Shown: piece after piece, positions 9,548 through 37,007 of the stretch | How positions within the stretch are numbered: position 1 is the first letter of the stretch | How the letters are laid out: each line of letters opens with the position of its first letter | Source of the DNA: a virus | Taxonomy: Duplodnaviria; Caudoviricetes | Virus record (IMG/VR): IMGVR_UViG_3300010371_000003 | Coordinates: 946-64,945 of that record | DNA length: 64,000 nucleotides | Direction: 5' to 3' (one strand) | Translations under genes and position numbers: made by a program | Notes under the pieces: generated by a model | What the model was told of the DNA's origin: nothing | Databases searched by the model: none | The model's input: the letters and a program-made list of their open reading frames with translations, nothing else

Positions 9548-9744
9548 CGTCGCTCCCTTCGTTCTCATCACGCTGTTGGGGGCAGATCTGTGTCGGAGGT
9601 CTTGGACGGCGCGCACGGCAGCACCTTGTGCGGCGGCGCCGGCGCTCGCCGCGCGGGTTTGCGCCGCGCTCGGACGGGTCCGCGTCGTTTCGCCATGACG
9701 ACGATGGTGCGGACCGCCGGAGCGACGCCCAAGTTTCGGGGGCC

Positions 9745-16708: not shown

Positions 16709-16856
16709 TGGTCGTGTCCGTCCTCGTTGCGCAATGAAGGCAGCCACGTCTGCGGCTGCCAACGTCGGCGTTATTCGCGCGGCATTCCGCGCACTTCTGC
16801 CTGGTAGTAATCTGTGAGTAGTGCCCGCAACGATCCGCGGGCGATGTCGCCGCCCG

Positions 16857-17126: not shown

Positions 17127-17341
17127 GACGTCGGCCCGTCTTCGATCGCCGCTACGCCCAAGCGCCGTTCCTGCGAGACACCGGGGTCGTGTCGCGCCAC
17201 CTCGATCCAGCCCGCGCGGACGCGCAGCTCGGCGGCCAGCTGGCGCTCCGCCAGCGTCGGCCCGAGGTGCGAGGCCGCAAGGCGAATCAGCTCAGACGTC
17301 CGCATGTCGGCGTACGACGGACGCTTCGGGTGCGCGGCCAT
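17123..17341 (-). CDS. Hypothetical protein
   Basis: Operon coupling. Confidence 0.55.
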   Translation of the reverse strand: MAAHPKRPSYADMRTSELIRLAASHLGPTLAERQLAAELRVRAGWIEVARHDPGVSQERRLGVAAIEDGPTS

Positions 17342-21467: not shown

Positions 21468-21499
21468 AGTTGGGGTCGGCCGGTGCGCAGCGCGACCAT
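21468..21499 (+). promoter_or_regulatory. Late promoter motif copy (endolysin)
   Basis: AGTTGGGG-18-GACCAT-6-ATG. Confidence 0.75.
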
Positions 21500-21505
21500 G
21501 GAGGC

Positions 21506-22057
21506 ATGCCGCGCGACACGGACCGATCCCATCTTCACCCCGTCTTCCGCGCCAAGCTGGCGGGCCTCGAGACGGCGCTGGCCGCGGCCGGGCTGCCGCT
21601 GCTGCTGTTCGAGGCCGGCCGCTCCCCGCAGCGTCAGCAAGAGCTGTTCGCCCAAGGCCGCGCGCCGGGCTGCGGGACCTTCGGGAAACACGTCACCAAC
21701 GCGAAGCCGTGGCAGTCGTTCCACCAGTTCGGCTTGGCCGCCGATTACGTCTTCTTCGTCAACGGGAGATGGACCTGGGACGAGCCGACGTCGGGCGCCT
21801 GGGCGCGCTACACCCAGATCGCGGCGCAGGTCGGCCTGCGCAGCCTGTCGTTCGAGCGGCCGCACGTCGAATTGCCCGTGGCGCTGGCTGTCCTGCAGGC
21901 CGGCCACTACCCGGATGGGGGCGATCAGACCTGGATCGACTGGCTCGACTCGATGATCGAGGGCTGGCCGCACAGCGCGACCACCATCGACGGCATCACC
22001 TACCCGGGCGCGCCGCCCATGCCGACTGCGATCCTGCGCCCTCCCCTGGTCGCCTGA
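21506..22057 (+). CDS. Endolysin, M15 family L-Ala-D-Glu peptidase
   Basis: EAGRSPQRQQELFAQGR...VTNAKPWQSFHQFGLAAD...ERPHVE. Confidence 0.92.
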   Translation: MPRDTDRSHLHPVFRAKLAGLETALAAAGLPLLLFEAGRSPQRQQELFAQGRAPGCGTFGKHVTNAKPWQSFHQFGLAADYVFFVNGRWTWDEPTSGAWARYTQIAAQVGLRSLSFERPHVELPVALAVLQAGHYPDGGDQTWIDWLDSMIEGWPHSATTIDGITYPGAPPMPTAILRPPLVA

Positions 22058-22281: not shown

Positions 22282-22633
22282 CGCCCGCCCGCTCCGCCAG
22301 CTTCTTTACGATCGCGTCCGCCCAGGACGGCCGAGCCCCATCGGCCAGCAGGTGCTCGCGGACGGCGTGCAGCACCTTGGCCGCGCCGCGGTGCTCCTGG
22401 CCGGCGAGCAGGTAGTCCCACTTCGCGAAAAACTCCCGCTCCGCGTCGCGCCAGCCGAGCCGGTACCCAGGCAGCTTGTCGGCGGCGCGCGTGGGCGTCA
22501 GTTCGTCCGCGTCCAACTCGACAAGGACGGTCGGGTCGAGCTCTACGGGGTGCTCGACCGCCGTATCGCGCTTCTCCCCCCATTCGGCTGTCGGATCCGC
22601 CTCGTCGTCCGGCGGCGGCCCGCCGGGGGGCAT
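22268..22633 (-). CDS. Hypothetical protein
   Basis: Coupled to ruvC; last gene of late arm. Confidence 0.6.
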   Translation of the reverse strand: MPPGGPPPDDEADPTAEWGEKRDTAVEHPVELDPTVLVELDADELTPTRAADKLPGYRLGWRDAEREFFAKWDYLLAGQEHRGAAKVLHAVREHLLADGARPSWADAIVKKLAERAGVKLG

Positions 22634-23142
22634 CAGGCGGCCGCCCGCTCGCCCCGGCCGTCCAGCGGGTGGAGGAGCGCGTGCGTCAACGCAACCGCCA
22701 GGGCATCGGCCGCGTCAGGCGCCGGCGTCTTGTTCAGGCCGAGCAGCTGCTTGACCATCCGACCGACGCGCGGCTTGTCGGCGCGCCCGCTGCCGGCGGC
22801 CGTCGCCTTCACGGTGGCCGGCGCGTACTCGACGACCCGCAGGCCGACGCGCGCCGCCAGGTAGCCGCCCATGCCGCGCGCGGCCGCGCTGACGAGCGCC
22901 CCCTGCTGATGCTTACCGCGCACCTTGTTCACGAACCCGTGCTCGAGCGCGACGACGTCTGGCCGCAGCTCCATCAGGACGGCCTCGAGGTCCGCTCCGA
23001 TCTCGGCGAGGCGCTGGTAGACCGGCCTGCTCGCCGGCGCCGTCAGCACGCCGGCGTCGACGAACGTCAGGTGCGGTCCGTCGACCAGCACCAGGCCGTA
23101 GCCGAACCGGACCGATCCGGGGTCGAGACCGAGCACCCGCAT
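22633..23142 (-). CDS. ruvC: Holliday junction resolvase RuvC
   Basis: MRVLGLDPGS..FGYG, VALE, EYAPATVK...GSGRADK, DAADALAVALTH. Confidence 0.95.
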   Translation of the reverse strand: MRVLGLDPGSVRFGYGLVLVDGPHLTFVDAGVLTAPASRPVYQRLAEIGADLEAVLMELRPDVVALEHGFVNKVRGKHQQGALVSAAARGMGGYLAARVGLRVVEYAPATVKATAAGSGRADKPRVGRMVKQLLGLNKTPAPDAADALAVALTHALLHPLDGRGERAAA

Positions 23143-23288
23143 CAGGGCCGCCCGCGAAAGCAGCGCGTGCCGACCAGGTACGCTGCCGCATACGCGGCGA
23201 TAACCACCACCACCGCCAGCAGCCCGACGGCCACGCGGCGCCAGCAGTAGCCGCACCGCCAGCCGCGGCAATGGACCGGAGCGTCCAT
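23142..23288 (-). CDS. Small membrane protein
   Basis: MDAPVHC...VAVGLLAVVVVIAAYAAAYLVG; TGATG-coupled at both ends. Confidence 0.5.
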   Translation of the reverse strand: MDAPVHCRGWRCGYCWRRVAVGLLAVVVVIAAYAAAYLVGTRCFRGRP

Positions 23289-23557
23289 CAGCTGGGCTTG
23301 CGGGCGGCCGCCCCGCGCATTCGCTCCTCGAGGCGGCCGCCGACGGTCAGATCCTCGAGGATCGGACGTTGCAATGAGACGCCAGCGAACGCCGCCGACG
23401 CGATGACGATGCCGCGGTTCAGGCCATCAGCGAAGCCGCGCCTGCGCCCGAGCTCCATCCCGTCCGCCACGCCGGTGAGCCTCCCGCGCTGGTAGGCGCG
23501 GCGGACGGCGACCGCGACGCCGGCGGCGCCCGCCAGGAGCAGGCCGGCCAGCTTCAC
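23288..23557 (-). CDS. Small membrane-anchored protein
   Basis: VKLAGLLLAGAAGVAVAVRRAY. Confidence 0.55.
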   Translation of the reverse strand: MKLAGLLLAGAAGVAVAVRRAYQRGRLTGVADGMELGRRRGFADGLNRGIVIASAAFAGVSLQRPILEDLTVGGRLEERMRGAAARKPS

Positions 23558-23931
23558 GGCGTCCCCGTGGGGGGCGGCTGGGGCACGGGCGGCGCATGGG
23601 GGATCAGGCTCTTGCCCATCACGCCGATGACGGCCGCCATCACGCCGACGGAAGTCCAGAGCCAGGGGTGCGGGTTCGCGCCGGGATGGACGTTGCCGGC
23701 GTGCACCAGGACGCCGGCGGACATGACGCCGCCGACAAACGTGCACAGGCGCTTGTAGAGCTCGGGCAGGTCGATCGGCGAGATCCCCAGGATGCCCGCG
23801 CCGCCCGCGATGCTCTGCACCAGGAACAGCGTCTGGGGCGAGATCTGGACCGGTTCTCCGGACGCCAACACGGCCGCGGCCGCGCTGACGACCAGCGCGG
23901 CCACGGACAGGATGATCTTCAGGATGCGCAT
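23554..23931 (-). CDS. Multi-pass membrane protein, holin candidate
   Basis: Four hydrophobic segments in 125 aa; SD GAAAGGA. Confidence 0.6.
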   Translation of the reverse strand: MRILKIILSVAALVVSAAAAVLASGEPVQISPQTLFLVQSIAGGAGILGISPIDLPELYKRLCTFVGGVMSAGVLVHAGNVHPGANPHPWLWTSVGVMAAVIGVMGKSLIPHAPPVPQPPPTGTP

Positions 23932-23944
23932 GTGGTCGTTCCTT

Positions 23945-24280
23945 TCAGCCTTGCGAGAGGCGTTCGAACGCGCGGCCGAGGTTTTCGAAAATGACGGAGA
24001 TCTCGTCGCGCATGTGGTCAGACAGCCCGTGGCAGTGGGCCGCCAGCTTCACGTAGATGGCGCGGACCTGAGCGTCGCTTCCACCTCGCTGCACCAGGCG
24101 TTCCACGTCGTCGAGGAGGTGCTCAGTGCGTTCGTGGGCGCCTCGAGAATCTCGGAGCCGAAGCCGGACGCGAGCGATGCGCTTGAGGATGTCCTCGATC
24201 CCGGCGGGGACGATGATCGGGGTGCGTTCCTCGTCTTCGTCAAAACCCGTAGGGCCAGGCGTCTTTGGCTCATTCGACAT
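23945..24280 (-). CDS. Hypothetical protein
   Basis: Helical ORF in late operon. Confidence 0.55.
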   Translation of the reverse strand: MSNEPKTPGPTGFDEDEERTPIIVPAGIEDILKRIARVRLRLRDSRGAHERTEHLLDDVERLVQRGGSDAQVRAIYVKLAAHCHGLSDHMRDEISVIFENLGRAFERLSQG

Positions 24281-24286
24281 CCCATC

Positions 24287-24676
24287 TCACTTGGTTGAGC
24301 CGCCATTCGGCGGGTGTTTCGTGACGAAATCGAGGGCGGTGGTGGCCAAGCCGGTCGGGGGCGGCTGGTCGGGCGGCGGCACCCCCCGGTCGGCGTAGAA
24401 CGTCCATGCCCGTCGCATGGCGTGCGCGGCGCTGGCCGCGTACTTGTAGAGCGCTATTCCGCCGCTGATCACGGCCACGGTGCTCCCCACCACCACCGCC
24501 GCGGTCTTGAGGTGCCGCGCCGCCTCTTCCCAGAACGCCACCCAGCGCGGCCAGCGCTCCCGCCGTCGCTCCCGGCGCTCGACCCGCTGCAGCTCCCGCC
24601 GCTCGCGGCTCTCCTCGCGCGCCCGCCGGCGCAGGTCCGCCTGCTCCAGCTGCTTGAGGTCCTTCGGTCGCTTCAC
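24287..24676 (-). CDS. Single-pass membrane protein
   Basis: Charged N-terminus, then one TM helix. Confidence 0.6.
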   Translation of the reverse strand: MKRPKDLKQLEQADLRRRAREESRERRELQRVERRERRRERWPRWVAFWEEAARHLKTAAVVVGSTVAVISGGIALYKYAASAAHAMRRAWTFYADRGVPPPDQPPPTGLATTALDFVTKHPPNGGSTK

Positions 24677-25134
24677 CGGTCACGCTGCCCCCCATTCTCG
24701 ACGGGATGGGTCAGCGCCCCTACTTTCGCGGGGCGCAACATGTGGCGGATGTGGGCGATCAGCCCCCCGCCGGGTTCCACGTCCCGGGCGGGGTCGTTCA
24801 GGCGGGCGGCCACCATCAAGACGAGCTCCTCTTCCTGCCAGTGGTACTCGGAGCTCGCCGGCCGGCGCCGGTCCCGCTGGTCAGCCGGGGCGGCGCCGAG
24901 CAGGTCAGCCACCGCCCGCAACACCGGCGAGATCGTCCCGAAGACGGCCGCGAGCGCGGCGTGTAGGGCGTCGTGCTCGCGGTTCATGGCCGCGCCGTCC
25001 GGGTACCCCAGGCGCGCGGCGTCCGCGGCGTAGCTGGCCGTGGCGTGTGGCCTGGCGGGGATGACCCGGCCGTCGGCCAGCTCCACCTCGCTGTAGCCGT
25101 CCCCCGGCCGCCAGTCGACCGCGCCGATCTTCAC
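24673..25134 (-). CDS. Hypothetical protein
   Basis: AARLGY....MNREHDALH...SPVL...WQEEE. Confidence 0.65.
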   Translation of the reverse strand: MKIGAVDWRPGDGYSEVELADGRVIPARPHATASYAADAARLGYPDGAAMNREHDALHAALAAVFGTISPVLRAVADLLGAAPADQRDRRRPASSEYHWQEEELVLMVAARLNDPARDVEPGGGLIAHIRHMLRPAKVGALTHPVENGGQRDR

Positions 25135-25634
25135 GGCTTGCCGGCCGCCGGTGCTACTGGCGGGCGGTAGGTCTCGGCGTCCAGACGTCGGATCACCTCG
25201 TCGGTCAGGTCCTCGGCCGACCACAGGCGGCCGTCCGGCTGGACGTCGGCGGTCGAGAGGTGGCGCTCGGCGGCGATCCGCGCGACGACGGGGCGGACGG
25301 CGTCCCGGAGCTTCTGAACGACCTGCGCCTCGTGCCGGGTTACCTCGGCCTGGAACGTGGCCTGCTTCTGGGCGGCCACGGCCCGCATCGTCTCGAGCTG
25401 CTTGTCCTTCGCCTTCTCGGCGGCGGCAAGTTGCTGGGACATCTTATCCAGCTCGTCCTGGCGAGACTTGAACACCGTCGCGTGCTCGTCAGCCAGGCGC
25501 TTGCCCAGTGCAGACTCCGAGGCCACCCGGGCGAGGTCGACCCAGCCGGCCGTCGGGGCAGCGGGCGGTGGCAGACGGCCGGCGCAGCCGGCCAGCATGG
25601 CGACAATGACGAAGGTCTTCGGGATCAGTTCCAT
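25131..25634 (-). CDS. OmpH/Skp-like chaperone with lipoprotein signal
   Basis: Lipobox LAGC; GWVDLARVASES.LGK, coiled coil, VVARIAAE, DLTDEVIRRLD. Confidence 0.8.
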   Translation of the reverse strand: MELIPKTFVIVAMLAGCAGRLPPPAAPTAGWVDLARVASESALGKRLADEHATVFKSRQDELDKMSQQLAAAEKAKDKQLETMRAVAAQKQATFQAEVTRHEAQVVQKLRDAVRPVVARIAAERHLSTADVQPDGRLWSAEDLTDEVIRRLDAETYRPPVAPAAGKP

Positions 25635-26371
25635 GTGTTCGCGTACGCGGCGACCGCGCTCCAAAGTGTGTGGCCCATCGTGGTGTAGCCGGAATCAGTC
25701 GGGTGGACGCCGCCGACCTGGACCTGGGCGCCCGTGACGATCGAGTGCATGCCGACGAACAGGCACGGCGGCAGCGACGAGCAGATGGACGGGATCAACC
25801 CGTTGTAGGTGACCGACACAGACTCAAGCGCGTCGTTGCGCGGCACCATGTCCGTGACGACGAACAGCGCGCCGGGCGCCGCGCCTCGCGCTGCAGTCAA
25901 CATCGTGGTCAGCTTGCTCGCCGTCGTCGCCGCCGAGTCGCCGTTGGTGATGTTGTTCGTGCCGTTGTTGGCGAAGATGACGATGTCGGGGTGGCCGTAC
26001 TGCCAGAACAGCGGGCTGGCCGACGAGATCAGCCCATCGATCTGCGCGCCCGGGAACCCAAAGCAGGCTTGCTGATTGAACCCGGCGTCGCCATCGAGCT
26101 GATTGCCGACCATGCGGGGCTTCTTCCCCGCGGCGACGGCGTCCTGGACGAAGACGTACCGCCATCCAGCCTCGAACAGCGCCGCAGTCGAATTGACCCC
26201 CGCGGTAATCGAATCGCCCACCGTCGCGATGGTCGTCGCTCCCAGGGTCGGGACCTTCGTCGCGACGGCGTGCCACTGATATTGCTTCTGGACGACCTGG
26301 GCGCTGGCGGGCGCGGCCATCGCGACAGCGGCCACGACGGTGATCGCAACCCCGACGAGCACCCGCCTCAC
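25625..26371 (-). CDS. Secreted SGNH/GDSL hydrolase
   Basis: Signal peptide (ASA/Q); GDSIT, PG, NGTN, VHP blocks. Confidence 0.88.
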   Translation of the reverse strand: MRRVLVGVAITVVAAVAMAAPASAQVVQKQYQWHAVATKVPTLGATTIATVGDSITAGVNSTAALFEAGWRYVFVQDAVAAGKKPRMVGNQLDGDAGFNQQACFGFPGAQIDGLISSASPLFWQYGHPDIVIFANNGTNNITNGDSAATTASKLTTMLTAARGAAPGALFVVTDMVPRNDALESVSVTYNGLIPSICSSLPPCLFVGMHSIVTGAQVQVGGVHPTDSGYTTMGHTLWSAVAAYANTWN

Positions 26372-27315
26372 GGTGTCACCGCCGCGTCGATCATGACGTT
26401 GTAGACGTACGCGCTCGGCTGCGTGGCCGCCACGGCCGTAACCCCTTGGACGATGGCGTACCAGTTGCCGCCGGCCGAGGTGTGTGGGAACGCCGTCGCG
26501 GCCGGGCCAATCGTCACGTCGCCGGTGTCGGTCGTTCCGTCGTAGCCCTCAAATTTCAGCGTCGTCCCGTCCGACCAGATCATCACCGAGTAGAGCGAGC
26601 CGGCGTTGTACGGCAGCGTCGCGGTCGTCGTCGGCGTCGTCGTGTTCGGCAGCCCCCCGGCGACGTGGCCCGTGAGCGCGCCGAATTGCGTCCCGAAAAA
26701 CCCGACCGCGGCGAACCCGTCGGTGCCTTGGTAAGGACCGATGATGAAGGTCGCGTTCGCGTCGGTGGTGATGAGCCTGAACTGTCCACCGAAACACCAG
26801 CGCTGGCTTCCGAGTGCCCCGATCGTCTTCTTCGAGTTGACGTTGTTGACCAGCGCGTACCCGGTGCTTCCCACGGACGGCCCGGTCAGCTTGTAAACCG
26901 CCGTCGCGTCGAAGGCGTCGCCACCGAACGCCGTGCCCGTTCCCGAGGCGCCGGGCGTCACGCCCGAGTTGCTGCCGTTCTCGAATCCCCAGGGTTCGAC
27001 CTTTTCAGTCCGGGGGTCGGCGATCCCGGCGCTCGATCGGCACTTCTGGGCTACGTAGTCGCGCCAGCCGCCCGACCCTGACGACGTCACGGTGGAGCTT
27101 CCGCCGCCGCCGATGGCAGGGTTGCCGCCGTAGGTTGCCGCGAGGACGACGACAGAGGCGCCGGTACCCGAGTACTCCGCGGACACGTCGGACCGCCTCT
27201 TGGCGTGCTTGTAGGCATGGCTGTGAGCGCTGGCCGGAATGGCCAGCCCGGCGACGACGACCAGGACCGCCGATGCGACGGCCGTCCGTAGCTTTCTCGC
27301 GATGATGGTGCGCAT
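26368..27315 (-). CDS. Secreted beta-rich protein
   Basis: Signal peptide ending PASA; G/T/S-rich. Confidence 0.75.
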   Translation of the reverse strand: MRTIIARKLRTAVASAVLVVVAGLAIPASAHSHAYKHAKRRSDVSAEYSGTGASVVVLAATYGGNPAIGGGGSSTVTSSGSGGWRDYVAQKCRSSAGIADPRTEKVEPWGFENGSNSGVTPGASGTGTAFGGDAFDATAVYKLTGPSVGSTGYALVNNVNSKKTIGALGSQRWCFGGQFRLITTDANATFIIGPYQGTDGFAAVGFFGTQFGALTGHVAGGLPNTTTPTTTATLPYNAGSLYSVMIWSDGTTLKFEGYDGTTDTGDVTIGPAATAFPHTSAGGNWYAIVQGVTAVAATQPSAYVYNVMIDAAVTP

Positions 27316-27318
27316 TCT

Positions 27319-27795
27319 TCAGCCCCCCTTTCGCATGTCGCTGATCGTCACGTTGCCGGATCCAGTGCAACCGGACAGGCCGAAGCGGACGTATCCCCAC
27401 GGCCACATTGGGTACTGGACGGGGATGAGGTTGACCCCAGACGCAAGGGCCGGCGGCGACGTCGTCAGCGTGATCGAGAACCACTTCGTCAGGTCCGAGA
27501 ACGAGTCGACCGTCGACTGATAGGAGTTGCTCCCGTACATCGTGATCGTCGTGCAGGCGGCCGTGCTGGACCCGTCCGTTCTGATCTCGTACCCGAGCAG
27601 ATCGATTGCCCCCGTGTATCTGGGCGAGCTGAGCGCGGAGCTGGTCGACACCGCGACCGTTTCACTGCTCGATGCGTTGATCGCCCCCGATCCCAGCTTC
27701 CCCGGCGTGTTCGGCGGCGGCGCGTTGTGGATGTTGTCTCCGCAGCCGGCGAGCGCCGCGGCCACGGTGAAGGCGAGAACGATTCGACGACGCAT
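27319..27795 (-). CDS. Lipoprotein
   Basis: MRRRIVLAFTVAAALAGC; SD GAAAGGG. Confidence 0.75.
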   Translation of the reverse strand: MRRRIVLAFTVAAALAGCGDNIHNAPPPNTPGKLGSGAINASSSETVAVSTSSALSSPRYTGAIDLLGYEIRTDGSSTAACTTITMYGSNSYQSTVDSFSDLTKWFSITLTTSPPALASGVNLIPVQYPMWPWGYVRFGLSGCTGSGNVTISDMRKGG

Positions 27796-27824
27796 GGTAC
27801 TGGCCCTTTCTTTGTTGGAGGTGT

Positions 27825-28373
27825 TCATCGCGACGCCAGCTCGAGGACGACGGGAACGGCCAGCCATTGCGGCAGGACGTCCGACTCGACGATGAAGGTC
27901 GACTTGGAGTAGACGTCCAGGACGCCCGACCGTCTGACGACGACGCCGGGCGGCTTCGTGGGATGTGCTGAGACGGATTCCCATTCTCCCATCGGTCGAC
28001 ACTCGTCGTCCTTGCAGACGTACTGCGTACTGGCCCGGGACAGACGGAGGCTCGTCTCCGGCGGCCCGGCCGGCCTGTCCGCGCCCGGCGTGCGCGGCGC
28101 CGCCTCCAGCTTCTTCGCGGGAGCCTTGGCCCTTTTCGCGCCAGCCTTCTTCGGCGCAACCTTCGCCTGATACGCCTGGCACTCGACCTGCGTCGCGAAC
28201 CAGACACCGCCGCCGGTCTTGTCGACGTACAGCCAGCCGGAGCAGTCCCGACCCGTAGTCGCGTCGCACATGTCGTGATTGTCGACGCACCCGACGGCGC
28301 CCTGGGCGTAGGCGCCCCGCTCGACGCCGACGCCGACCGCGACGGTCGCGAGAATGAGGATGATTCTACGCAT
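27825..28373 (-). CDS. Secreted Cys-containing protein
   Basis: MRRIILILATVAVGVG...AYA/Q. Confidence 0.7.
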   Translation of the reverse strand: MRRIILILATVAVGVGVERGAYAQGAVGCVDNHDMCDATTGRDCSGWLYVDKTGGGVWFATQVECQAYQAKVAPKKAGAKRAKAPAKKLEAAPRTPGADRPAGPPETSLRLSRASTQYVCKDDECRPMGEWESVSAHPTKPPGVVVRRSGVLDVYSKSTFIVESDVLPQWLAVPVVLELASR

Positions 28374-28375
28374 GA

Positions 28376-29068
28376 TCAGCTATCCTTTCCGGTTGGGTTG
28401 GCGGCCGAGTAGAGGCCGATGTGCTCGACGAGGTGGTGCGTCTGCTCGAAGGTCCAGCCGTGGAAGCCGCCCACGACTCCGATTGCGCGGTCCACCCACA
28501 CGGCGCCGCCGACCAGGAAGCGATAGCGCGTCTCGGCGTCCGCCAGCGCGCAGAGCGAGCGATGGGGGATCTTCACGGCCTGGGACTGGCGGAAGGTCAC
28601 CGCCGGGTGAACGCCTACGGCACGCCCGAAGCTGAAAAACGACGTCCACGCCGCTCCCTCTGGGACCTCATGCCGCAGCATCTCCGCGAACGCGCCGCGG
28701 TGAACAGCCCTTACATCGTCTTCAAGAAACAGCAGGTCTGCGCCCATCGCCCAAGCAGTCCGGAGCGCCACCCACCCTGGGGTGATGTTCTCGTTGAATG
28801 CCCCCCGCGCGCGGTTGCGCGGCGGCAGGACTGCGCTCGTCCAGCCGTCGGCCACTACTTCTGGGCCGTCGCACACCAGCAGGCGCGGAACGTCCGGCGT
28901 CACCTCGGCGTCGACGGACGCCAGCGTGCCCGACAGGTAGCCCGCCCCGTGCGGTCGCGGGCAGGTCAGAACCGAGATCATCAAGCTGGTGGAGGCCCGC
29001 GCCGGGCGTGACCCCAGCGCCGCAACCGCTGCGGCGGCGCAACCGATAAAGTGTCGTCTCGTGTGCAT
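28376..29068 (-). CDS. GT-A-like glycosyltransferase with Tat-like signal
   Basis: TRRHFIG...ARA/S; LLVCD; LLFLEDD; LVEHIG. Confidence 0.7.
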   Translation of the reverse strand: MHTRRHFIGCAAAAVAALGSRPARASTSLMISVLTCPRPHGAGYLSGTLASVDAEVTPDVPRLLVCDGPEVVADGWTSAVLPPRNRARGAFNENITPGWVALRTAWAMGADLLFLEDDVRAVHRGAFAEMLRHEVPEGAAWTSFFSFGRAVGVHPAVTFRQSQAVKIPHRSLCALADAETRYRFLVGGAVWVDRAIGVVGGFHGWTFEQTHHLVEHIGLYSAANPTGKDS

Positions 29069-29081
29069 GCATGCCCCCAGG

Positions 29082-32000
29082 TCAGTAAAGGACCGCCTGA
29101 CAATCGATGTTCATCTCGGTCACGCTCTTGCCCGTCGCCGAGTCCGTCCGATAAACGGCGACGAACAGCATCGCCCCGGATGGGATGCTTCCCGAGAACG
29201 TTGCCCGTCCGAGCGGACCCAGCGTCGTCCCCCAGTTGCTCGTCGTGAGCGACGCGGCCAAGTTGTAGGCCGACAGGTCGGTGGAGTAGTAGAGGCCGAA
29301 GACCTCGGTGTCAGTTCCGCTGCCGCTCGTCGCTCCGCTGTAGTAGTTGGAGCAGGTGAACACGCCGCCGGTAAACGTCCGCGTCGTGGTGTACCCAATT
29401 GGGAATGTGGCATCAACGCCTCGGTGAGCATTGAGTGTCAGGCCCACCGAACCGCTGACTGTTGTGTACACGTCTGTATTGGACGTCTGACTTCCGAGGG
29501 ACCCGTTTGGGAAGAAGATGACCGCCATGTTCGCGGTCAACCCGACACCGCTGGCTGACAGGGCCTGGGACCATGTCATGGTCTGAGACGCGGGAGACGT
29601 AATGGGGGCCTGGTAATCGACGCCAGCGACGGCCGCCTGCAACACATGGCCAGTGCTCGTTTTGACCATGCTTGTGCCGGCGACGCTGTCCACCTCCAGG
29701 TTGTTCTTGACGACCGTGTCGCCGGCGTTCGTGAGCCGCATCCCCTCGGCCCACGACGTCCCGTTGAACACCGACAACACCAGGTCGCTCGTTATCGCGG
29801 TCCCGGGGACGCTGTTGCCGACCGCGACAGCCTTGGTCGGTGAAGCATCTTTCCAGAACTGCGTGGTCACGCCCGTAGAAGAGGTTGGGATTTCCTGAAG
29901 TCCATTCGCGTTGTTGGTCGAGAGTGTCCCGCTCGAATCGAGCAAAAGGTGACTGTTGCCGCCGGACATCAACGTAAACAGACTGGAATTGCCGACGCCG
30001 GTCCCGATGTCAAAGCGTCCGTTCAGCTTGGAGATCTCCTGCGTGGCGCTCTGGTTCAGCGCCAGCGCAACAGTGCTCGCGTCGGACCCGTCGATTTCCA
30101 CGGGACCGCCCTGAACCCAGATCGCGGGCCGCGTCGTGCATGACGCCGATCCCGTGCAGGTCCACGGCCCGGCGACGGTCAGGGTCGCGAGCTCGTCGAC
30201 GGTGACCGCGGAGCTCGACGTGAGCGTGTTGGCGCCCAGGTAGAGGCCGCCCTGGTGCGAGGTGACGTGCGTCGTCCCGGTCAGCGTCTCGGTCACGCCG
30301 TCGAAACGATAGAGGCCCTGCAAGCTGGCCGCGCTCGCAGTCGACTGCGGGGTCATGGACCACTCGACCGTCGTGGGCGACGTCGGCGCGAGCGGCGTGC
30401 CGCTGTTCGTCCACGTCGCGCCGACCAGGTTAACGCCCTCGATGACGCCGCTCGCGGTGATCGACTGACGAGTCGTCCCGCCCGTGTACGAGTTGAATGC
30501 GTTGGCGCTCGACGTCCCGGCGTAGAGATTGCCGCCGGTCTTGTTGATTTGCTGGTCGGCGGCCTGGTTCAGCACGAGCGCGTAGCCGCTGCCGTTCGAC
30601 GACCCGATCGTCACCGCGCCGGTCGTCAGGGTGAAGGTGCTCGCACCGGTCAGGCCGGTGCCGGTCCCGATCGCGATCTGGGGCGACGCCGGGTAGGTCG
30701 TCGTGGCAGCCGAAAGCGTGCCACCGGATAAGGTCAGACCGGACAGCGCGACGCGCGTAAGCTGGCCGCTGGCCGCGTTGGCGTAGACGAGCGCGTCGGA
30801 CCCGCCGGCCAGGTTCGGGATCTGAACCTCGCCGGTCGACAGCGCGATGACCCGCGAGATGTTGCTCGACATCAGCGTGGCCATGTCTGGGCCCGTCGTC
30901 CCGAAGTCCACGCGGCCGCCCGACTTGGCGATCTGCTGGGTGCCGGCCTTGTTCAACAGGATGGACACGCCGCTCGCGTCCGAGTTGTTCAGGGTCGCCC
31001 GCTGGTTCGCGCTGTCCCAGACGAAGCCGGCGTCACCGGTCAGGATCGTCCCGTTGCTGTAGGCGACGCGCCCGGACCCAGGCACGGCTCCCGAGGTAAG
31101 CGCGCCGGCGGCGCCGTAGAGGACGCCCGTCGGGTAGGTAATCGGCGCCTGGTAGTCGAACCCGGGCGAGGCGATCCCGACGTTGCCGCTGGCATCGGTC
31201 TTCAGCATGCCGGCGCTGTAGGCCGTCAGCTGGAGCAGCCCGCCCGCGCCGACGACAACGCGGCTGATGTTGCCGGTCATGAGGGTCACCTGAAAAGCCC
31301 CGGCCGTTCCGACGTCGAGACGACCGTTGAACTTGGCGAGCTGCTGGGTCGCGGACTCGGTCAGCGCGAGCGCGACGGACGACCCATCGTCGCCCGTGAG
31401 CGTCAGGTGGTGCGCGGTCACCAGGTGGGTCACGGTGCTCTCGGTGAACGTCGAATCGCCGACCGGGCCCGTCGCCGCCGCGACCAGCACGTCGGGCGCC
31501 GCCGGCCAGCCCGTGCTGAGGTTCGAGATCGAGTCACCGGTCGCGAGGTAGTCGAGGGGGTGCGTCGCGAGCGCGAGCTGCCCGCCGGTCGACGGGAGGA
31601 TCTTGGCCATGCCGCCAGCCGCGTACTGGGGCAGGAACACCGCAGCCGAGGTCAGGGTCAGCGCAAGCACCCCGCTCGGCGCGAAGTGGATGTAGTTGCC
31701 GGTGCCGCTGCTGGTCTCGATGGTGAGCCGGTTCGGACCGCCATCGCTGCCGGCGTAGGTCGAGCTGCCGAGGAAGATGTCGGCGATGGTGCCGACGTTG
31801 TTGATCAGCCGCAGCTCCGAGTAGGCGCTGTTTCCGGCGTTGTTGTTCTGGACGTACGCGCCGACGCCCCCCGTCGAGTTCCCGACGATGTGCAGCGGCG
31901 CGGATGGCGACACCGTGCCGAGACCGAACCTATGAGCTGCTGGATCGTAAAAGAAGTTCGAGTGGTCCTCGGCGAGCCCGCCGTTCCAGAAAATGACTGA

Positions 32001-33677
32001 CCCGTTCGAGAAGCTGCCGAGGCCGGTGGCGGGGACCGTTCCCGTCAGCGTCGAGTAGGCCAGCGACTGGCAGACGACACCCGCACCAGTCGTCTGGAAG
32101 ATCTGGCCGGTGCCGGTGCAGGTGACGTCCTGCACGTTGGCCGTCCCGACGCCAGGGTTGCCCACCAGCGACAGGCCGGCGCTCTGGCGAAGCTTCGCGT
32201 TGCTGACGACGTTGGGCTGGATCGTGGCCGGGACCGTGCCGGGGCCGGTGAACGCGACGTCGCCCGTCCCGCCAGTCACGTAGGCGCCAGGCCCCTGGAT
32301 GTCGGCTCCCCCGGTGGTGGCACCGCTGGCCTGGATGGTGGCGGCGGCCAGCGCCGACCCGGTCCACTTCAGGACGCCCGTCGGCGGCGCGATCGTGCTC
32401 AGCAGCTGCGCGCCGGTGGCGATGGACGGGAGGCAGTCGCCGGCCGAGACCGCGCACCACAAGGGGCCAGTCGTCAGGCTGCCCAGGTTGAAGGCATTCA
32501 CGGGCGCGCTCGTGGCCCGCCGGACCAGGTAGTAGCCGTTCGCGTTGGCGCCCGTGGTGGCTGAATTGGACGGCCGCCACGCCGATCCGTTCCAGGTCAG
32601 GACCTGGCCGCTGGTGGCGCCGTATTGGGACAGGGTCAGCGTGATCGGTCCGACGGCGGGGCCGACCCCCTGAACGTCGCCATCAAATCCGATGTTCGTG
32701 GTGGGCGTGACGAACGTCTGCGCGGTCGCGCCGGTGATTCGCCCGTAGACGTCGCGCTGGATGGCCGCGATCCCGCTTCCGCCGTAGTTCGTCTCGGGGC
32801 CCAGGACGGGGAGGTCGAACGTCGGGTTGCCGCCCGATCCGTTGCCGTTGCCGATTGAGATGGTGCCCAGCGGCGATGTCAGCGTGCGTGTGGCCGCCCA
32901 GGCGCCGGCCGAGGCGACCCCGAACCCGGTGCCCCCAGGCGCCGAACTGGCCGGGTTGGCCGGCGCCCAGGCGCTGCCGTTCCAGCCCAGGATCTGGCCC
33001 GACGTGGCGCCGCCCTGGGCGATGCTGGCCGGGGGCACGAGCGCCCACGTCAGCGCGCCGGCCGCCCGCTGGAAGACCTGCCCGTCAGCCGTGGCCGGGA
33101 CGTCCTGGGGCGCCGCGGTGGCGTTCGTGGCGTTGGCCTTGGCCGTCAGGGCCGGCATCGTGGCGGCCTGGGCGTTGCCCACGGCGCCGCTGGCGATGCC
33201 CGCGCTTCCGACCTGACCCCAGCTGGCCGCCGGGCCGGCGCCGGTTACCAGCACCTGGCCCAGCGTGCCCGGCGTCAGGTTCCCCAGCGGCAGCAGCCCG
33301 GTCACGTAAATGCCGGCGTCGAGGTGGAGCGTCAGCGCCGCTGACCCGGGGCCGGCCGCCGTCCCGCCGCCGGTGAGCGCGTTCAGGTAGGCGCCGGGCC
33401 CCTGAAAGTCAGATCCGCCCGTCGTCGCGCCGGCCGCCTGGGCGACGCCGCAGCGGAACAGCGGCGAGCCACCCGTGAACACGACCACGCACGGAAGCCC
33501 GCTCCCCGGCATGTCGCCGCGACGCACCGGCTCGCCGCCGGTCACCGGGGTCAGTAGGTTTCGGATCCGGAACTGGTTCTGAAAATCCTGGTTCGTGTAG
33601 ACCGGTGCATCGGCGCGCGCGGCACGGACGGCCGTCAGCACCAGCAGTAGCGCGAGGATGACCCGGCGGCCGAACAT
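29082..33677 (-). CDS. Long tail-fibre-like protein with Sec-type signal peptide
   Basis: MFGRRVILALLLVLTAVRAARA/DA; ATSGQ.L.WNGSAW x2; GATTGG.D.QGPGAY x2; RFGLGTVSPSAPLHI; four ALxLN..AtQQIxK.xGR repeats. Confidence 0.85.
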   Translation of the reverse strand: MFGRRVILALLLVLTAVRAARADAPVYTNQDFQNQFRIRNLLTPVTGGEPVRRGDMPGSGLPCVVVFTGGSPLFRCGVAQAAGATTGGSDFQGPGAYLNALTGGGTAAGPGSAALTLHLDAGIYVTGLLPLGNLTPGTLGQVLVTGAGPAASWGQVGSAGIASGAVGNAQAATMPALTAKANATNATAAPQDVPATADGQVFQRAAGALTWALVPPASIAQGGATSGQILGWNGSAWAPANPASSAPGGTGFGVASAGAWAATRTLTSPLGTISIGNGNGSGGNPTFDLPVLGPETNYGGSGIAAIQRDVYGRITGATAQTFVTPTTNIGFDGDVQGVGPAVGPITLTLSQYGATSGQVLTWNGSAWRPSNSATTGANANGYYLVRRATSAPVNAFNLGSLTTGPLWCAVSAGDCLPSIATGAQLLSTIAPPTGVLKWTGSALAAATIQASGATTGGADIQGPGAYVTGGTGDVAFTGPGTVPATIQPNVVSNAKLRQSAGLSLVGNPGVGTANVQDVTCTGTGQIFQTTGAGVVCQSLAYSTLTGTVPATGLGSFSNGSVIFWNGGLAEDHSNFFYDPAAHRFGLGTVSPSAPLHIVGNSTGGVGAYVQNNNAGNSAYSELRLINNVGTIADIFLGSSTYAGSDGGPNRLTIETSSGTGNYIHFAPSGVLALTLTSAAVFLPQYAAGGMAKILPSTGGQLALATHPLDYLATGDSISNLSTGWPAAPDVLVAAATGPVGDSTFTESTVTHLVTAHHLTLTGDDGSSVALALTESATQQLAKFNGRLDVGTAGAFQVTLMTGNISRVVVGAGGLLQLTAYSAGMLKTDASGNVGIASPGFDYQAPITYPTGVLYGAAGALTSGAVPGSGRVAYSNGTILTGDAGFVWDSANQRATLNNSDASGVSILLNKAGTQQIAKSGGRVDFGTTGPDMATLMSSNISRVIALSTGEVQIPNLAGGSDALVYANAASGQLTRVALSGLTLSGGTLSAATTTYPASPQIAIGTGTGLTGASTFTLTTGAVTIGSSNGSGYALVLNQAADQQINKTGGNLYAGTSSANAFNSYTGGTTRQSITASGVIEGVNLVGATWTNSGTPLAPTSPTTVEWSMTPQSTASAASLQGLYRFDGVTETLTGTTHVTSHQGGLYLGANTLTSSSAVTVDELATLTVAGPWTCTGSASCTTRPAIWVQGGPVEIDGSDASTVALALNQSATQEISKLNGRFDIGTGVGNSSLFTLMSGGNSHLLLDSSGTLSTNNANGLQEIPTSSTGVTTQFWKDASPTKAVAVGNSVPGTAITSDLVLSVFNGTSWAEGMRLTNAGDTVVKNNLEVDSVAGTSMVKTSTGHVLQAAVAGVDYQAPITSPASQTMTWSQALSASGVGLTANMAVIFFPNGSLGSQTSNTDVYTTVSGSVGLTLNAHRGVDATFPIGYTTTRTFTGGVFTCSNYYSGATSGSGTDTEVFGLYYSTDLSAYNLAASLTTSNWGTTLGPLGRATFSGSIPSGAMLFVAVYRTDSATGKSVTEMNIDCQAVLY

Positions 33678-34081
33678 CAGAGCGTCGCCATCGCCTGCCC
33701 TGCCGCGGCCGCCTCGAGGCGCGCCTGCATGTCGGCCCGCGCCTCGCGCGCGGCGACCTGGCGGGCATCGGGGTCGATCCGCGTCCAGATCTGAAGGCGT
33801 CCCATTCGGAGCGCCGCCGTGATCATGACGCCGTCGCAGTTGAGGCCGCGGCTCTCGAGGATCTGCCGCGCCAGCTGCACAACGGCCGCGTCGCTCCTGA
33901 TCTGCCCCGGCGTTCCTTCGAGCAGCTCCGCCTGGGCGTCGAGCGACTGAGCGAAGTCCGCCTTGCGCAGCTCGACGTCGACGAGGTCCTTGCGTCGGCC
34001 GATGCGACGCATCGCCTTCTCGAAAGCGTTCTCTTCGGGCGTGCGCCGGCGCTCACGCCGGATTCGCGCTTGCTTTCCCAT
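33677..34081 (-). CDS. Hypothetical protein
   Basis: SD AAGGAG; coupled to fibre. Confidence 0.6.
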   Translation of the reverse strand: MGKQARIRRERRRTPEENAFEKAMRRIGRRKDLVDVELRKADFAQSLDAQAELLEGTPGQIRSDAAVVQLARQILESRGLNCDGVMITAALRMGRLQIWTRIDPDARQVAAREARADMQARLEAAAAGQAMATL

Positions 34082-34304
34082 CGGTCTCCTTTGGGTGGGC
34101 TGCCTGCCACCGGTTGATGGCGCAGCTGCACACGTCCGTCCGCGGCACCGCGACCCCGCCCTTTCGGAACGGGACGGCTCGCGTCAAGAGCCCCAGGTCG
34201 CAGCCGAGGGGGCAGCGCGGGTCATAGGAATCAGCCACTTCCGCCCCGTCGACCTTTCGGCCGTCGAAGGTCCGGATGACCTGGGTGTAGGGGGCGTCCG
34301 CCAC
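34053..34304 (-). CDS. Small Cys-containing protein
   Basis: CPLGC...VCSCA; directly follows late promoter motif. Confidence 0.6.
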   Translation of the reverse strand: MADAPYTQVIRTFDGRKVDGAEVADSYDPRCPLGCDLGLLTRAVPFRKGGVAVPRTDVCSCAINRWQAAHPKETDGKASANPA

Positions 34305-34341: not shown

Positions 34342-34513
34342 TCGGGGCGGCGCGGCTTCCTGAACGCGCGCCCAGCTTGCGCCCACCCCCACCTCGACCG
34401 GAGACTGCTCGAGCTGGCCCGGCCGGCCGACTGATCATCGGCTGGTGGGCGGAGGGCGCTCCCCGACGCCCGGGGCCAGCGTTGACCGGGGAGCAGAGGT
34501 CAGGAGCGGACCC

Positions 34514-35218
34514 ATGGGACTTGATCTGAAACCCTGTCTTGGTTGCCGGCAACTCGTAGATGTCTCGACGCCGGCGTGCTTCGCGTGTGGGCGAAAGAGA
34601 CCGACGGCGCGCGGCCCGCGCAAGGCCATCATCTGGTTCATCGTGGCGGTCGGCGTCCTGCTGATCGTCGGCCTGGCGAGCTCCTGCGGAAGCGTCAGCA
34701 ACACCCCGGCCGGCGCCGGCGGCGCCGCCGGATCACCGACCCCAGCAACCGGCGGCGCCGCCGGCCGCCTCGGCGTGACCCCCAGCGGAACCGGTGGCGG
34801 CGCCGCGGGTGGCAGCGCGGCTGGGGCCTCCGGCGACGCTGGCGCCGCCGGAGGCGGGGCCGGCACGGTCGGCTGTGGCGACACCTTGTCCGATCCGAAC
34901 AACTGCGGCGCATGCGGCCACGTCTGCCCCGCGAACCCGTACCAGACGTTCCCCGCTGCGCCGGAGGTCTGCTACCAGGGCAGCTGCTTGCTGCCCGGCG
35001 GATCGCTCTGCCAGGCCGACTCGGAGTGCCTCACCACGAGGTGCGCCAGTAACAACGGCCAGGCGAAGGAATGCCAGCTCAGGTCGTGCGCCCGGGATAG
35101 CGACTGCCCGGCCCAGATGTCGAAGTGCACGGAGACCGCCCCCGACAACGGTCTTCCGTGCGCTTCTGCGCCGCACCCGGATGGCGGCTGGTCCTGCGTC
35201 TGCTTCGCGGTTCAGTAG
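34514..35218 (+). CDS. Moron: Zn-ribbon, TM helix and myxobacterial-type Cys-rich extracellular domain
   Basis: LKPCLGC...CFACG; TM; Gly linker; DTLSDPNNCGACGHVC; SD CAGGAG. Confidence 0.8.
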   Translation: MGLDLKPCLGCRQLVDVSTPACFACGRKRPTARGPRKAIIWFIVAVGVLLIVGLASSCGSVSNTPAGAGGAAGSPTPATGGAAGRLGVTPSGTGGGAAGGSAAGASGDAGAAGGGAGTVGCGDTLSDPNNCGACGHVCPANPYQTFPAAPEVCYQGSCLLPGGSLCQADSECLTTRCASNNGQAKECQLRSCARDSDCPAQMSKCTETAPDNGLPCASAPHPDGGWSCVCFAVQ

Positions 35219-36290
35219 GCGAGGTCGCCGGCGCCGCGCGCGGCGGCGAAGTCCACCACCCCGTAACGCCCGCGGCCCGTGTTGCCGGTGCTGAGCTGCC
35301 AAAAGAAGGGGTAGTAGAGCATCCGGTCGACCGGGTTCGGGGGCGTCAAATCGACGCCGAAGTTCTTCACGGGCGCCCCGTCGACGTAGACGATGACGCG
35401 CGGCGACCCGTCGTCGGAGGCGTTCGCGCCCTGGTACTCGAGCCGGACTCGGGAGCCGGTGGTGATCCCGAGATCCGTGTACGTCGGTGACCCAGCGGAC
35501 AGGCAGGTGTAGAGCTGCCAGTGCGTGTCGGTCAGGCGGGCGACGATCGCGATTCCGATCGGCGCCGTCGCCGCGAAGGTGGTGCTGGTCCCGATCAACA
35601 CCGGGTCACCGGCCGAGGCGAGCAGCCCGAACGCCCCCTCGCAGGACGACCCGAATAGGCCGCTCAGGCTGAGCACGTCGACAGAGAGCGCCATGTCGGT
35701 GTCTTCGGTGATCCATGTGCCGCACAGCGGGTTCGCCTCGACCACCGCGATCGCCTGGCCGCTGGTCGAGACGTTGCCCGTGTCGAGGACGAGCGAACCG
35801 CCGGCGTACGGCGGCGGTGTTCCCGGGCCAGCCGGTAGCCCGAAGAACGCGGGGTAGATCTGGGGCGCGCCGGGCCCGACGTGAATGCCGTACTTCCAGC
35901 GTCCCGCCCATACGCCGCTGCCGCCCGTGTTCTTCGTGACCAGGCCGACGTCGTCCCAGCGTTCCTGCCACCTCGTGACCTTGGCCATGTTGCGAAGCCT
36001 CGGTGGTCGACGAAGTCTCGGCGTTGGCCTCTCGGACTGCGCCACGCCTTGATCGGCTGGACGTACGCGGCATCGAGCCCCGCCGGAGACGTGGGCGCTG
36101 TGCCCGTCGGTTGCTTTTCCCAGGCGATCTCGTTCGCCAGCGCCTGGAAGCCCTGGTTCACGGTCGCGGCATCGACCGGATCGGTCAGGTCTGTCGGCAC
36201 GCCGAGGACCGGGACGGTGTCGGGGCCCGGCAGCGCAGAAGGCGTCGCAACGCCCGTCGGGTTCCCCGTGATGGTCGTAGATCCAGGCAT
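35212..36290 (-). CDS. Baseplate-proximal tail protein split by a single-base frameshift near 35993
   Basis: MPGSTTITGNP...FVDHRGF joins RNMAKVTRWQERW if one base is added. Confidence 0.6.
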
Positions 36291-36308: not shown

Positions 36309-37007
36309 TCATGGTGAAACGAATCGCACGCTGCCCCCGCCCCACTTGATTCCGGACGGGTCCCACATCCTCGTCGGCGGCCAGCCCCACACCGGCGCGG
36401 AGAGGATCACCGCGCAGCCCTTGTAGACCCACTTCGACGGCTTCCAGCCGTAGATGATCGAGTTGAAAAGGTCGGCGCTCGGGTCGCCATCCTCGAACGT
36501 GAAGCCGATCGGGGGCGTGAAGTCCGCGCCGATCACCACCATGAACTGGTTCCACAGGGCGGGCGAGCTCCCGTCGAACGACATCGGTGCATGCGTCCCG
36601 TAGGTCACAACGCCGGCGTCCAAGTAGCTGTAGGTCTTGGCGCGCTTGACGATGTTCACCCCGCTGGCCGTGCCCATCGGGAAGCCCGCGCGTGCGAGCT
36701 CGAACAAGATGCTTCCGTCCGAGCCGCAGAAGGACGGCCCCGCTGGATCGTCGAAGCAGGTGCGCAACCGCTCGGCGTATGCGTCGTCGGTCTCACCGAC
36801 CGCACGTCGGAGCTTCCGTTCCGCGCCGATGTAGGGCAACGCGTCGGGCGGCCCGTAGCCGGGCAGGCTCGCCATCACACCTTGGCGAGCTCGGTCCATG
36901 CTGACGTCCTTCTCGGCGCCGTAGGCCGTCTCCAGGACGGTGCCGTTCGCGCGCTGGAGGCACCCCGGCGCGCGCCTGCTCTGGTAGATCGCGTAGAGGC
37001 TGCCCAT
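36309..37007 (-). CDS. Baseplate wedge protein (Mu gp48/P2 I-like)
   Basis: PPDALPYIGAERKL....ETDDAYAERLR; follows J-like genes. Confidence 0.75.
   Translation of the reverse strand: MGSLYAIYQSRRAPGCLQRANGTVLETAYGAEKDVSMDRARQGVMASLPGYGPPDALPYIGAERKLRRAVGETDDAYAERLRTCFDDPAGPSFCGSDGSILFELARAGFPMGTASGVNIVKRAKTYSYLDAGVVTYGTHAPMSFDGSSPALWNQFMVVIGADFTPPIGFTFEDGDPSADLFNSIIYGWKPSKWVYKGCAVILSAPVWGWPPTRMWDPSGIKWGGGSVRFVSP

Follow-up and report, generated by a model that had tools for sequence, protein, structure and literature searches.

What is a long fibre with a secretion signal doing at the end of a phage tail module? The question is raised by a cassette of seven genes in the window, as the whole stretch of DNA analysed here is called: 64,000 nucleotides, bases 946-64945 of a single 64,945-base virus record (IMGVR_UViG_3300010371_000003), with about 70% G+C. 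The cassette runs on the minus strand from 33677 to 25131; its seven consecutive products begin with export signals of Sec, Tat or lipoprotein type, and neighbouring genes are spaced by anything between a 10-nt overlap and a 29-nt gap. An earlier note on this DNA had claimed seven exported open reading frames (ORFs), among them a fibre. All seven are present, on the minus strand and each with an export signal, and the fibre lies in tail-fibre position, behind the Baseplate_J genes (37007-39660), where a signal peptide is unusual. The best explanation is an export-and-maturation module for a phage fibre. All the evidence is computational, drawn from sequence and predicted structure; it makes export of the fibre, of a Skp-like protein and of a glycosyltransferase (GT) very likely, and points more tentatively to where the fibre goes afterwards.

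Are the signals real? They were called by reading n-, h- and c-regions and lipoboxes, together with a crude rule-based script, under the usual criteria: for Sec, a basic n-region, then about 10-15 hydrophobic residues without charge as the h-region, with small residues at positions -3 and -1; for lipoproteins, a lipobox [LVI][ASTVI][GAS]C ending the h-region; for Tat, the consensus S/T-R-R-x-F-L-K ahead of an h-region of mild hydrophobicity, and a basic c-region that contains AxA. Of 91 candidate ORFs the script picked out 12, antisense shadows among them, and it got signal classes wrong. Its crudeness lends something to a reading in which the fibre is an ordinary cytoplasmic one, the N-termini being mere look-alikes or unused and their clustering a coincidence of moron accretion. 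Such a coincidence is countered by the manual tally, in which 11 of the 72 called genes carry an export signal: with it, a run of at least seven signal genes arises in 31 of 2,000,000 shuffles (1.5e-5).

The signal-bearing fibre and its partners

The fibre-like protein (29082..33677, minus strand) has 1531 aa; behind a Sec signal come a conserved N-domain, a shaft that is mosaic and repetitive, and a tip domain at the C-terminus. Its N-terminus reads MFGRRVILALLLVLTAVRAARA followed by DAPVY, and the cut is predicted between ARA and DAPVY. The signal peptide comprises residues 1-22 (33612..33677, minus strand); the N-domain of the mature fibre occupies approximately residues 23-80 (33438..33611, minus strand), includes the Cys63-Cys76 pair and is defined by alignments A2, A3 and A7. 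Could the true starts lie downstream of the signals, as the earlier note had allowed? The fibre frame holds no ATG, GTG or TTG upstream of its start back to the stop at 34052, and the signals are kept in relatives; they are not artefacts of start choice. The fibre contains ten cysteines in five close pairs (63/76, 408/415, 520/536, 1174/1180 and 1442/1526). Elsewhere in the cassette, the mature 182-aa protein has six cysteines, the small lipoprotein two and a 315-aa protein two, a content that, as read from the translations, fits oxidative folding outside the cytoplasm.

The 1531-aa sequence matches no curated family (0 in Pfam, 0 in PHROG), tail-fibre families included, and Pfam detects neither a hydrolase family nor Peptidase_S74 in it. 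A word-indexed search of 5.8 billion proteins gives three partial relatives (P0001-P0003), long fibre-like proteins without a signal peptide that share patches with the fibre; two of them carry collagen repeats. Over 384 aa the fibre is 36% identical to a collagen/DUF5907 fibre of locus L002. Three related phage contexts accompany the window as DNA: L011, an IMG/VR contig with 68% G+C; L014, a contig of the metagenome-assembled genome (MAG) of an uncultured Myxococcales bacterium; and L018, from a genome of the same order. When residues 1-160 of the fibre are run with phmmer against 1.84 billion representatives, 14 proteins match at E <= 0.001. Half of them (1016-1611 aa) begin with a signal peptide and continue with the same N-domain, ..NLxxP..EPxRxGDxPGxGxPC....C; the remaining seven align to internal fibre-like stretches. 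Together with the window fibre and the L011 and L018 fibres taken from DNA, those seven make up the ten family members of alignment A7. A signal peptide is present in all ten, though the signal sequences themselves diverge, and the N-domain is seen only directly behind a signal. Its fold model is too poor for use (pLDDT 50).

The last gene of the cassette (25131..25634, minus strand) encodes an OmpH/Skp-like lipoprotein of 167 aa. Its sensible start is 25634, which gives the N-terminus MELIPKTFVIVAMLAG, cut before C at the lipobox LAG-C (AMLAG-C). OmpH (PF03938), with a cut-off of 32.4 bits, scores 43.0 in the window, 61.7 in L011 and 49.0 in L014. The Skp-like identity given in the earlier note is thereby upheld, as is that of an SGNH hydrolase, both families scoring above their Pfam cut-offs; there are also weak matches of the window protein to solved OmpH chains. 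A Skp-like gene lies next to or near the fibre gene in three of the four phage contexts (window, L011 and L014), and a periplasmic chaperone family in this place is hard to reconcile with unused signals. Two of the three copies (window and L011) are lipoproteins; that of L014 has a Sec signal. A role as a spanin was considered for the Skp-like lipoprotein and rejected: it has no C-terminal membrane segment, and in L011 its gene is found on the upstream side of the fibre, at a distance from the lysis genes.

Between the fibre gene and the rest of the cassette lies the gene of a GT-like protein of 230 aa (28376..29068, minus strand) with a twin-arginine N-terminus, MHTRRHFIGCAAAAVAALGSRPARA followed by S, of which residues 1-26 form the Tat-type stretch. 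Its 16 homologues give an alignment of 17 rows (A1), in all of which D67, E116-D117-D118 and H216 are invariant (E116-D117-D118 as the DxD-type motif for metal and nucleotide sugar). Every row with an N-terminal extension (10/10) shows RR, a hydrophobic stretch and small residues; six others begin straight at the core strand (MISVLTCPRP-like), and the remaining row is a fragment. The AlphaFold2 (AF2) model built on A1 reaches a pLDDT of 84 and a pTM of 0.82, with residues 1-22 as a detached helix of low confidence and the core starting at residue 28. Foldseek returns 117 PDB matches for this model at E <= 0.001, and all the matches listed are GT-A enzymes, headed by protein- or collagen-glycosylating ones; the top matches are POMGNT1, mimivirus R655, the collagen galactosyltransferase GLT25D1, GlcAT-P, GnT-I and SpsA. 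A further 138 viral models match at E <= 0.001, many of them named glycosyltransferase, and the Atlas model agrees. No curated GT family matches the sequence at E <= 5 in Pfam or E <= 1 in NCBIfam, nor does any PDB sequence. Given the modelled GT-A fold and the absence of a curated match, the protein is best described as a GT-A-fold enzyme of an uncurated family, behind a Tat-type leader, which agrees with its earlier labelling as glycosyltransferase-like and Tat-like.

Does this enzyme act on the fibre? GT genes adjoin long fibre genes in the window, L011, L002, L003 and L012, and from this adjacency we infer that the GT may transfer sugar to the fibre. In L002, a distant relative of low G+C, two GTs flank the 1750-aa collagen/DUF5907 fibre and neither partner has a signal; the same holds for L012, also of low G+C, where the GT is followed by a 1453-aa protein. 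The GT of L003, a third relative of this kind, is likewise without a leader; there the contig ends within the fibre. Members of the high-G+C clade have signals on both partners, Sec for the fibre and Tat for the GT: the window and L011 each pair a signal-bearing fibre with an RR-bearing GT. The compartments of the partners are thus matched, with signals on both or on neither. This is the strongest internal argument for signals that are in use and for an enzyme whose target is the fibre. Possible further fibre and GT elements are P0023/P0006 (longest contig 66231 bases each) and P0024/P0005 (31865 bases), and P0008/P0041 (5712 bases) is a possible GT and Skp contig, co-residence being read in each case from equal figures rather than seen in DNA.

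An ordinary cytoplasmic fibre behind unused signals has one further point in its favour, the lack of a known donor for a GT-A enzyme outside the cytoplasm. Against it stand features kept in 10/10 fibres and 10/10 N-extended GTs despite sequence divergence, and GT relatives that lack the extension just where they lie beside signal-less fibres. Such a reading is very improbable.

Recurrence, timing and destination of the fibre

How far does the cassette recur as a unit? In L011 the order is baseplate genes, a signal-less short fibre of 382 aa, the OmpH/Skp lipoprotein, a 1714-aa fibre with a signal peptide, the GT with RR and, later, RuvC. L014 has Baseplate_J, a short protein of 296 aa, a signal-bearing fibre of 1611 aa and the OmpH/Skp protein with its Sec signal, followed by homologues of the small lipoprotein (29% identity over 157 aa, E = 1e-12) and of a window membrane protein (24287-24676). 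L018 begins with two Baseplate_J genes, a protein 45% identical to that of window 36309-37007 and a short fibre; then come two opposite-strand genes with export signals, a signal-bearing fibre of 1427 aa, the membrane-protein homologue, RusA and VanY. The Skp-like gene is thus found in three of the four contexts, the GT in two and the small lipoprotein in two, and the 182-aa protein, the 315-aa protein and the SGNH hydrolase occur in the window only (0/3 other contexts). The idea of seven genes forming one conserved system does not survive this comparison: in the three other contexts the fibre recurs in 3/3, the Skp-like gene in 2/3, the GT and the lipoprotein in 1/3 each, and because recurrence is partial the seven are not one fixed system. 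What recurs is the exported fibre with the Skp-like chaperone, often accompanied by the Tat-type GT-A enzyme. Lack of conservation, which the earlier note had named as a ground for dropping its proposal, does not extend to this core of fibre, Skp-like protein and GT.

L011, L012 and L013 come from a scan of IMG/VR viral contigs with alignment A1, which finds nothing when run against genome contigs. The fibre, the GT, P0006 and alignments A3 and A4 find nothing in the IMG/VR viral contigs, and a Baseplate_J scan of them gives one distant locus, L001. A further candidate, L019 (G431), was set aside as a context; its match to the N-domain profile is weak (E = 4e-4) and its neighbourhood is not phage-like by ORF inspection.

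When would the module be expressed? In L014 the fibre ATG overlaps the stop of the preceding short-fibre gene (ATGA), and in L011 the module is collinear with the tail genes. In the window, a 12-nt motif, GGGCGCAAGCTG (34373..34384, minus strand), lies 69 nt upstream of the first operon gene as a candidate regulatory site. Further sites, intergenic and on the minus strand, lie at 55681-92, 60382-93 and 60679-90. In its degenerate form the motif has four sites in the window where 0.2 are expected, all intergenic and all on the minus strand, the pattern having been derived from the same data in which the sites were counted. Two sites are upstream of packaging genes and one upstream of a cluster of lipoprotein and peptidase genes. 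The claim of a late motif thus stands as to its position and its excess over expectation; it is weakened by the origin of the pattern and by the absence of the motif from 19 related loci. The motif may be a regulatory site, and its sharing with the upstream region of packaging genes, taken with the L014 overlap and the collinearity in L011, hints that the module is expressed late. Two window proteins match sigma-70 region 4 (7748-10150, 800 aa; 62012-62818, 268 aa), and one or the other might be the factor by which the recurring GGSSGCAAGCTS motif is recognised.

The best explanation of the module may then be spelled out. The fibre chain would be threaded through Sec and kept soluble during trimerisation by the phage Skp-like holdase, and it would gain disulfides from its five Cys pairs. 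The GT, folded in the cytoplasm and delivered by Tat, would modify it. If the module is expressed late, the matured fibre would meet the cytoplasmic virions only at lysis, upon breach of the inner membrane, and the conserved N-domain would dock it there as an additional long fibre. The 182-aa protein, the 315-aa protein and the SGNH esterase would be variable riders on the operon, and the small lipoprotein partly so. A role on the virion is favoured by the tail-fibre position, by the coupling to tail genes in L014 and the collinearity with them in L011, by the conserved N-domain and by distal modules that are swapped and held in common with signal-less fibres. The whole chain of steps, docking on virions at lysis included, is plausible rather than probable. 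Cast in general terms, it would describe a secretory branch of tailed-phage assembly, made up of Sec, Skp, disulfides, glycosylation by a Tat-delivered GT-A enzyme and mounting at the holin breach; this broader formulation is slightly more doubtful still. It would imply a hitherto unrecognised periplasmic sugar donor, and by analogy it would resemble the way in which enveloped viruses gain spikes from the secretory pathway at exit.

A good deal weighs against such a route. Tailed virions assemble in the cytoplasm, and we know of no tailed phage that adds a periplasmic part. Nor do we know of a periplasmic sugar donor for a GT-A enzyme, or of nucleotide sugars outside the cytoplasm; the supply of donor to a periplasmic GT-A is unexplained whichever reading holds. 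The GT N-terminus (TRRHFIG ... SRPARA, then S) reaches 14 bits with Pfam TAT_signal, below the cut-off of 22.7. The L011 fibre has seven cysteines, an odd number. There is no OmpH gene on the L018 contig and no GT in either the L018 or the L014 genome. As to timing, the motif is found ahead of the lipoprotein and peptidase genes as well, and its absence from the related loci counts here too.

The remaining points on this side concern the virion itself. Each of the four phage contexts has a separate signal-less short fibre, so that the virion may be able to do without the exported one. In addition, the exported fibres are without the N-terminal module of approximately 190 aa found in the signal-less long fibre P0002 (1666 aa). 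The first ~190 residues of P0002 are 52% identical to the separate 296-aa protein of L014 (9114-10004), just before the exported fibre, and these sequences give the impression of a long fibre divided in L014 into an N-terminal piece and an exported remainder. Finally, both the window and L018 have opposite-strand genes that cut off the tail operon from the module. In the window a single plus-strand gene (34445..35218; zinc-ribbon, one-pass membrane, Cys-rich protein) separates the tail operon from the fibre operon; in L018 two genes with export signals, one of them for a Gly- and Cys-rich lipoprotein, lie at the same place (8563-9929, minus strand). No sequence similarity was detected between the genes of the two phages.

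It is possible, on the same evidence, that the fibre never joins a virion and is instead an exported adhesin of the cell envelope, supplied to the host along with its chaperone and modifying enzymes, anchored by its N-domain and serving the lysogen in adhesion, predation or receptor masking. The separate short fibres and the missing P0002 module speak for this. Being set apart from the tail operon by opposite-strand membrane or lipoprotein genes in the window and L018, the module would have its own promoter, and the phage has lipoprotein genes elsewhere as well. The architecture, a signal, an adjoining N-domain, a mosaic fibre and variable tips, matches that of the mosaic adhesive trimer (MAT) fibres of Bdellovibrio (PMC10769870). 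One relative (L014) lies in the MAG of an uncultured Myxococcales bacterium. Myxobacteria are a predatory group. Yet Pfam finds no outer-membrane translocator or barrel domain in the module, and the coupling to a tail gene in L014 and the collinearity in L011 point to late expression, in a cell about to die. The distal modules common to signal-less phage fibres are what would be expected of host-range parts. Moreover, the fibre family is rare in genomes, with 1 of 401 in a phylum sample and 3 of 89 in the order, one of these weak. An envelope fibre is on the unlikely side, though a serious alternative.

Alternatively, the fibre, the esterase and lectin-like proteins may be made late as free factors that act on the envelope or matrix of the producer cell, or on debris after lysis, where they would bind or strip receptors and polysaccharide and so keep progeny from being trapped, again without joining the virion. 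The indications of late expression serve this explanation as well as the best one, the SGNH esterase and beta-rich proteins do travel with the fibre in the window, and a stretch of the L011 fibre resembles the middle region of P0001, which may be read as a beta-helix of depolymerase type. However, the esterase and the beta-rich proteins occur in none of the three other contexts and no hydrolase family is detected in the window fibre; a free factor, besides, needs no conserved N-terminal anchoring domain. Free exit factors are an unlikely account. Remodelling of surface glycans by the cassette, also suggested by the earlier note, has no direct support.

Operon and phage context

The cassette belongs to a block of 13 minus-strand genes without gaps, which starts at 34304 and extends to 23554. 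The first (34053..34304) encodes 83 aa with neither an export signal nor a family match. It is followed by a basic protein of 134 aa (33677..34081), again without an export signal, the stop of which overlaps the fibre start by 1 nt (TGATG). Behind the fibre and GT genes comes the 182-aa protein (27825..28373), with the Sec-type N-terminus MRRIILILATVAVGVGVERGAYA cut before Q (GAYA-Q) and a Lys/Ala/Pro-rich linker. The small lipoprotein of 158 aa (27319..27795) has the N-terminus MRRRIVLAFTVAAALAG, cut before C at the lipobox LAG-C (AALAG-C), and its sensible start is 27795, rather than that of the long ORF from 28290. Pfam LPAM_1 matches the two lipoproteins of the cassette only weakly (E = 0.2-0.3). 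The beta-rich protein of 315 aa (26368..27315) has a Sec signal; its look-alikes in the Atlas are small viral proteins, with one SO2946-like_C cluster, which is a lead only, and BLASTP against short fibres gives nothing significant. The SGNH/GDSL hydrolase of 248 aa (25625..26371), with a Sec signal ending in APASA before Q, scores 47.2 bits with Lipase_GDSL_2 in Pfam (cut-off 32.9). Its catalytic-Ser block is GDSITAG; in the block V region, GGVHPT, the His is present and the residue three positions before it is Gly instead of the Asp of the Asp-x-x-His that defines this block. Four further genes of the operon (23554..25134, minus strand) include the membrane protein at 24287-24676, with homologues after the fibre in L014 and L018, and a multi-pass membrane protein at 23554-23931 that may be lysis-related.

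Upstream, adjoining the baseplate genes, lies the signal-less short tail fibre (35212..36290, minus strand), a conventional virion fibre. In the window record its gene changes frame near 35990-36000. The break looks like a 1-nt assembly error in the record rather than a broken gene, because Logan contigs have an extra G behind 35991, at a depth of 36 of 39, which restores a single frame. These contigs, an independent assembly of a soil DNA run that is probably the source, are identical to the window across the cassette. Among sequencing runs the window DNA is found in one soil DNA run, and no RNA run is listed.

The window is almost the entire contig, of about 65 kb, of a myovirus with a Mu-like head, and nearly all its genes lie on the minus strand. 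Pfam identifies the large terminase (58196-59632), a Mu-type portal fused to an InPase domain (55968-58160), Mu F, Mu I protease and gpT capsid (49653-53050), a DUF2586 sheath-type protein (45454-47154), the tape measure (42473-44347), two Baseplate_J proteins (37007-39660), RuvC (22633-23271), a VanY/M15 peptidase on the plus strand (21470-22057) and, by a weak match, an integrase (5662-7089). This gene set makes it a complete or nearly complete phage of myovirus type, probably temperate. It is a soil phage, and its hosts are probably myxobacteria. Among 50,697 phage records, neither megablast with the cassette nor tblastn with the fibre gives a match, and relatives of the terminase are distant only (<60% identity). 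No tRNA or Rfam family is found in the window; sigma-70-type promoters give no matches there and terminators match at chance level.

Further features stand out in the head region. The InPase (inorganic pyrophosphatase-like) domain makes up residues 478-604, at the C-terminus of the portal protein (Pfam, E = 1.3e-31). Between the portal and Mu F genes lies a second cluster of exported proteins (53401-55571, minus strand), with three small Cys-rich lipoprotein-type genes (55299-55571; an internal start in 54700-55416; an internal start in 53401-53763) and a papain-like Peptidase_C1 protein (53709-54941, minus strand). Upstream of the putative small terminase gene, 1.9 kb (60117-62011) are without a called gene and contain two copies of the 12-nt motif. 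In L011, an HNH/AP2 endonuclease gene (1459-2094) lies between the baseplate and short-fibre genes, and a GGDEF diguanylate cyclase gene (15744-17165) follows RuvC.

Known systems and significance

What would it mean if the fibre were mounted on virions? Docking would be a new kind of assembly route and would overturn the working rule by which tailed virions consist entirely of parts folded in the cytoplasm. Disulfides and periplasmic modification would become available to phage fibres, which bears on fibre engineering. Host-range prediction would be affected too, since in the search for receptor-binding candidates it is routine to drop 'non-structural' proteins with a signal. Whatever its destination, a Tat signal on a GT-A enzyme kept in ten homologues raises the question of an extracytoplasmic sugar donor, and a phage-encoded Skp offers a testable chaperone-client pair. 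The literature searched, with subscription journals outside its scope, holds no report of an exported tailed-phage fibre, a phage-encoded Skp or a Tat-exported GT-A enzyme.

Conventional myovirus fibres lack a signal peptide and are folded in the cytoplasm with assembly helpers, such as gp57A and gp38 of T4 or the assembly protein that accompanies the fibre in P2 and Mu. The window fibre resembles them in its place at the end of the tail module, its long repetitive mosaic body, its conserved N-terminus and variable distal part, and its helper gene; it differs in the Sec signal and in a helper of a periplasmic chaperone family. As for that helper, an above-cut-off Pfam score and an export signal are shared with the periplasmic holdase Skp/OmpH. 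Here it is phage-encoded, however, two of three copies are lipoproteins, and its client would be the fibre rather than an outer-membrane barrel protein.

Virions of mycobacteriophages are reportedly glycosylated by phage GT-A or GT2 enzymes. The window offers a likeness to this in a small GT-A enzyme beside its presumed structural target, as do the relatives in L002, L003 and L012 beside signal-less fibres; in the window clade, by contrast, the GT carries a twin-arginine signal that would place it outside the cytoplasm. Prophage morons, known from lysogenic conversion, are small single lipoproteins such as Bor of lambda and Llp of T5. As with these, exported or lipid-anchored proteins of a temperate phage are encoded where its late region borders on other genes, and the window has further ones at 53401-55571; a 1531-aa fibre that comes with a chaperone and a modifying enzyme, a set conserved in related phages, is a different matter.

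The nearest described system is that of the MAT fibres of Bdellovibrio bacteriovorus, which are chromosomal, number 21 per genome and in 13 of the 21 cases carry an S74 C-terminal chaperone (PMC10769870). The comparison is one of described architecture alone, and the trimeric state of the window fibre is a prediction only. In both cases a protein like a phage tail fibre has a signal peptide with an N-domain directly behind it and mosaic distal parts, and is made by a Gram-negative producer for use outside the cytoplasm. The window fibre differs in being phage-borne, one per phage and behind baseplate genes, in having no detected S74 and in its company of a Skp-like chaperone and a Tat-type GT. 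Should it prove to be cell-bound, the MAT adhesins of Bdellovibrio would have their first phage-borne counterpart, and it would show a possible origin of such fibres.

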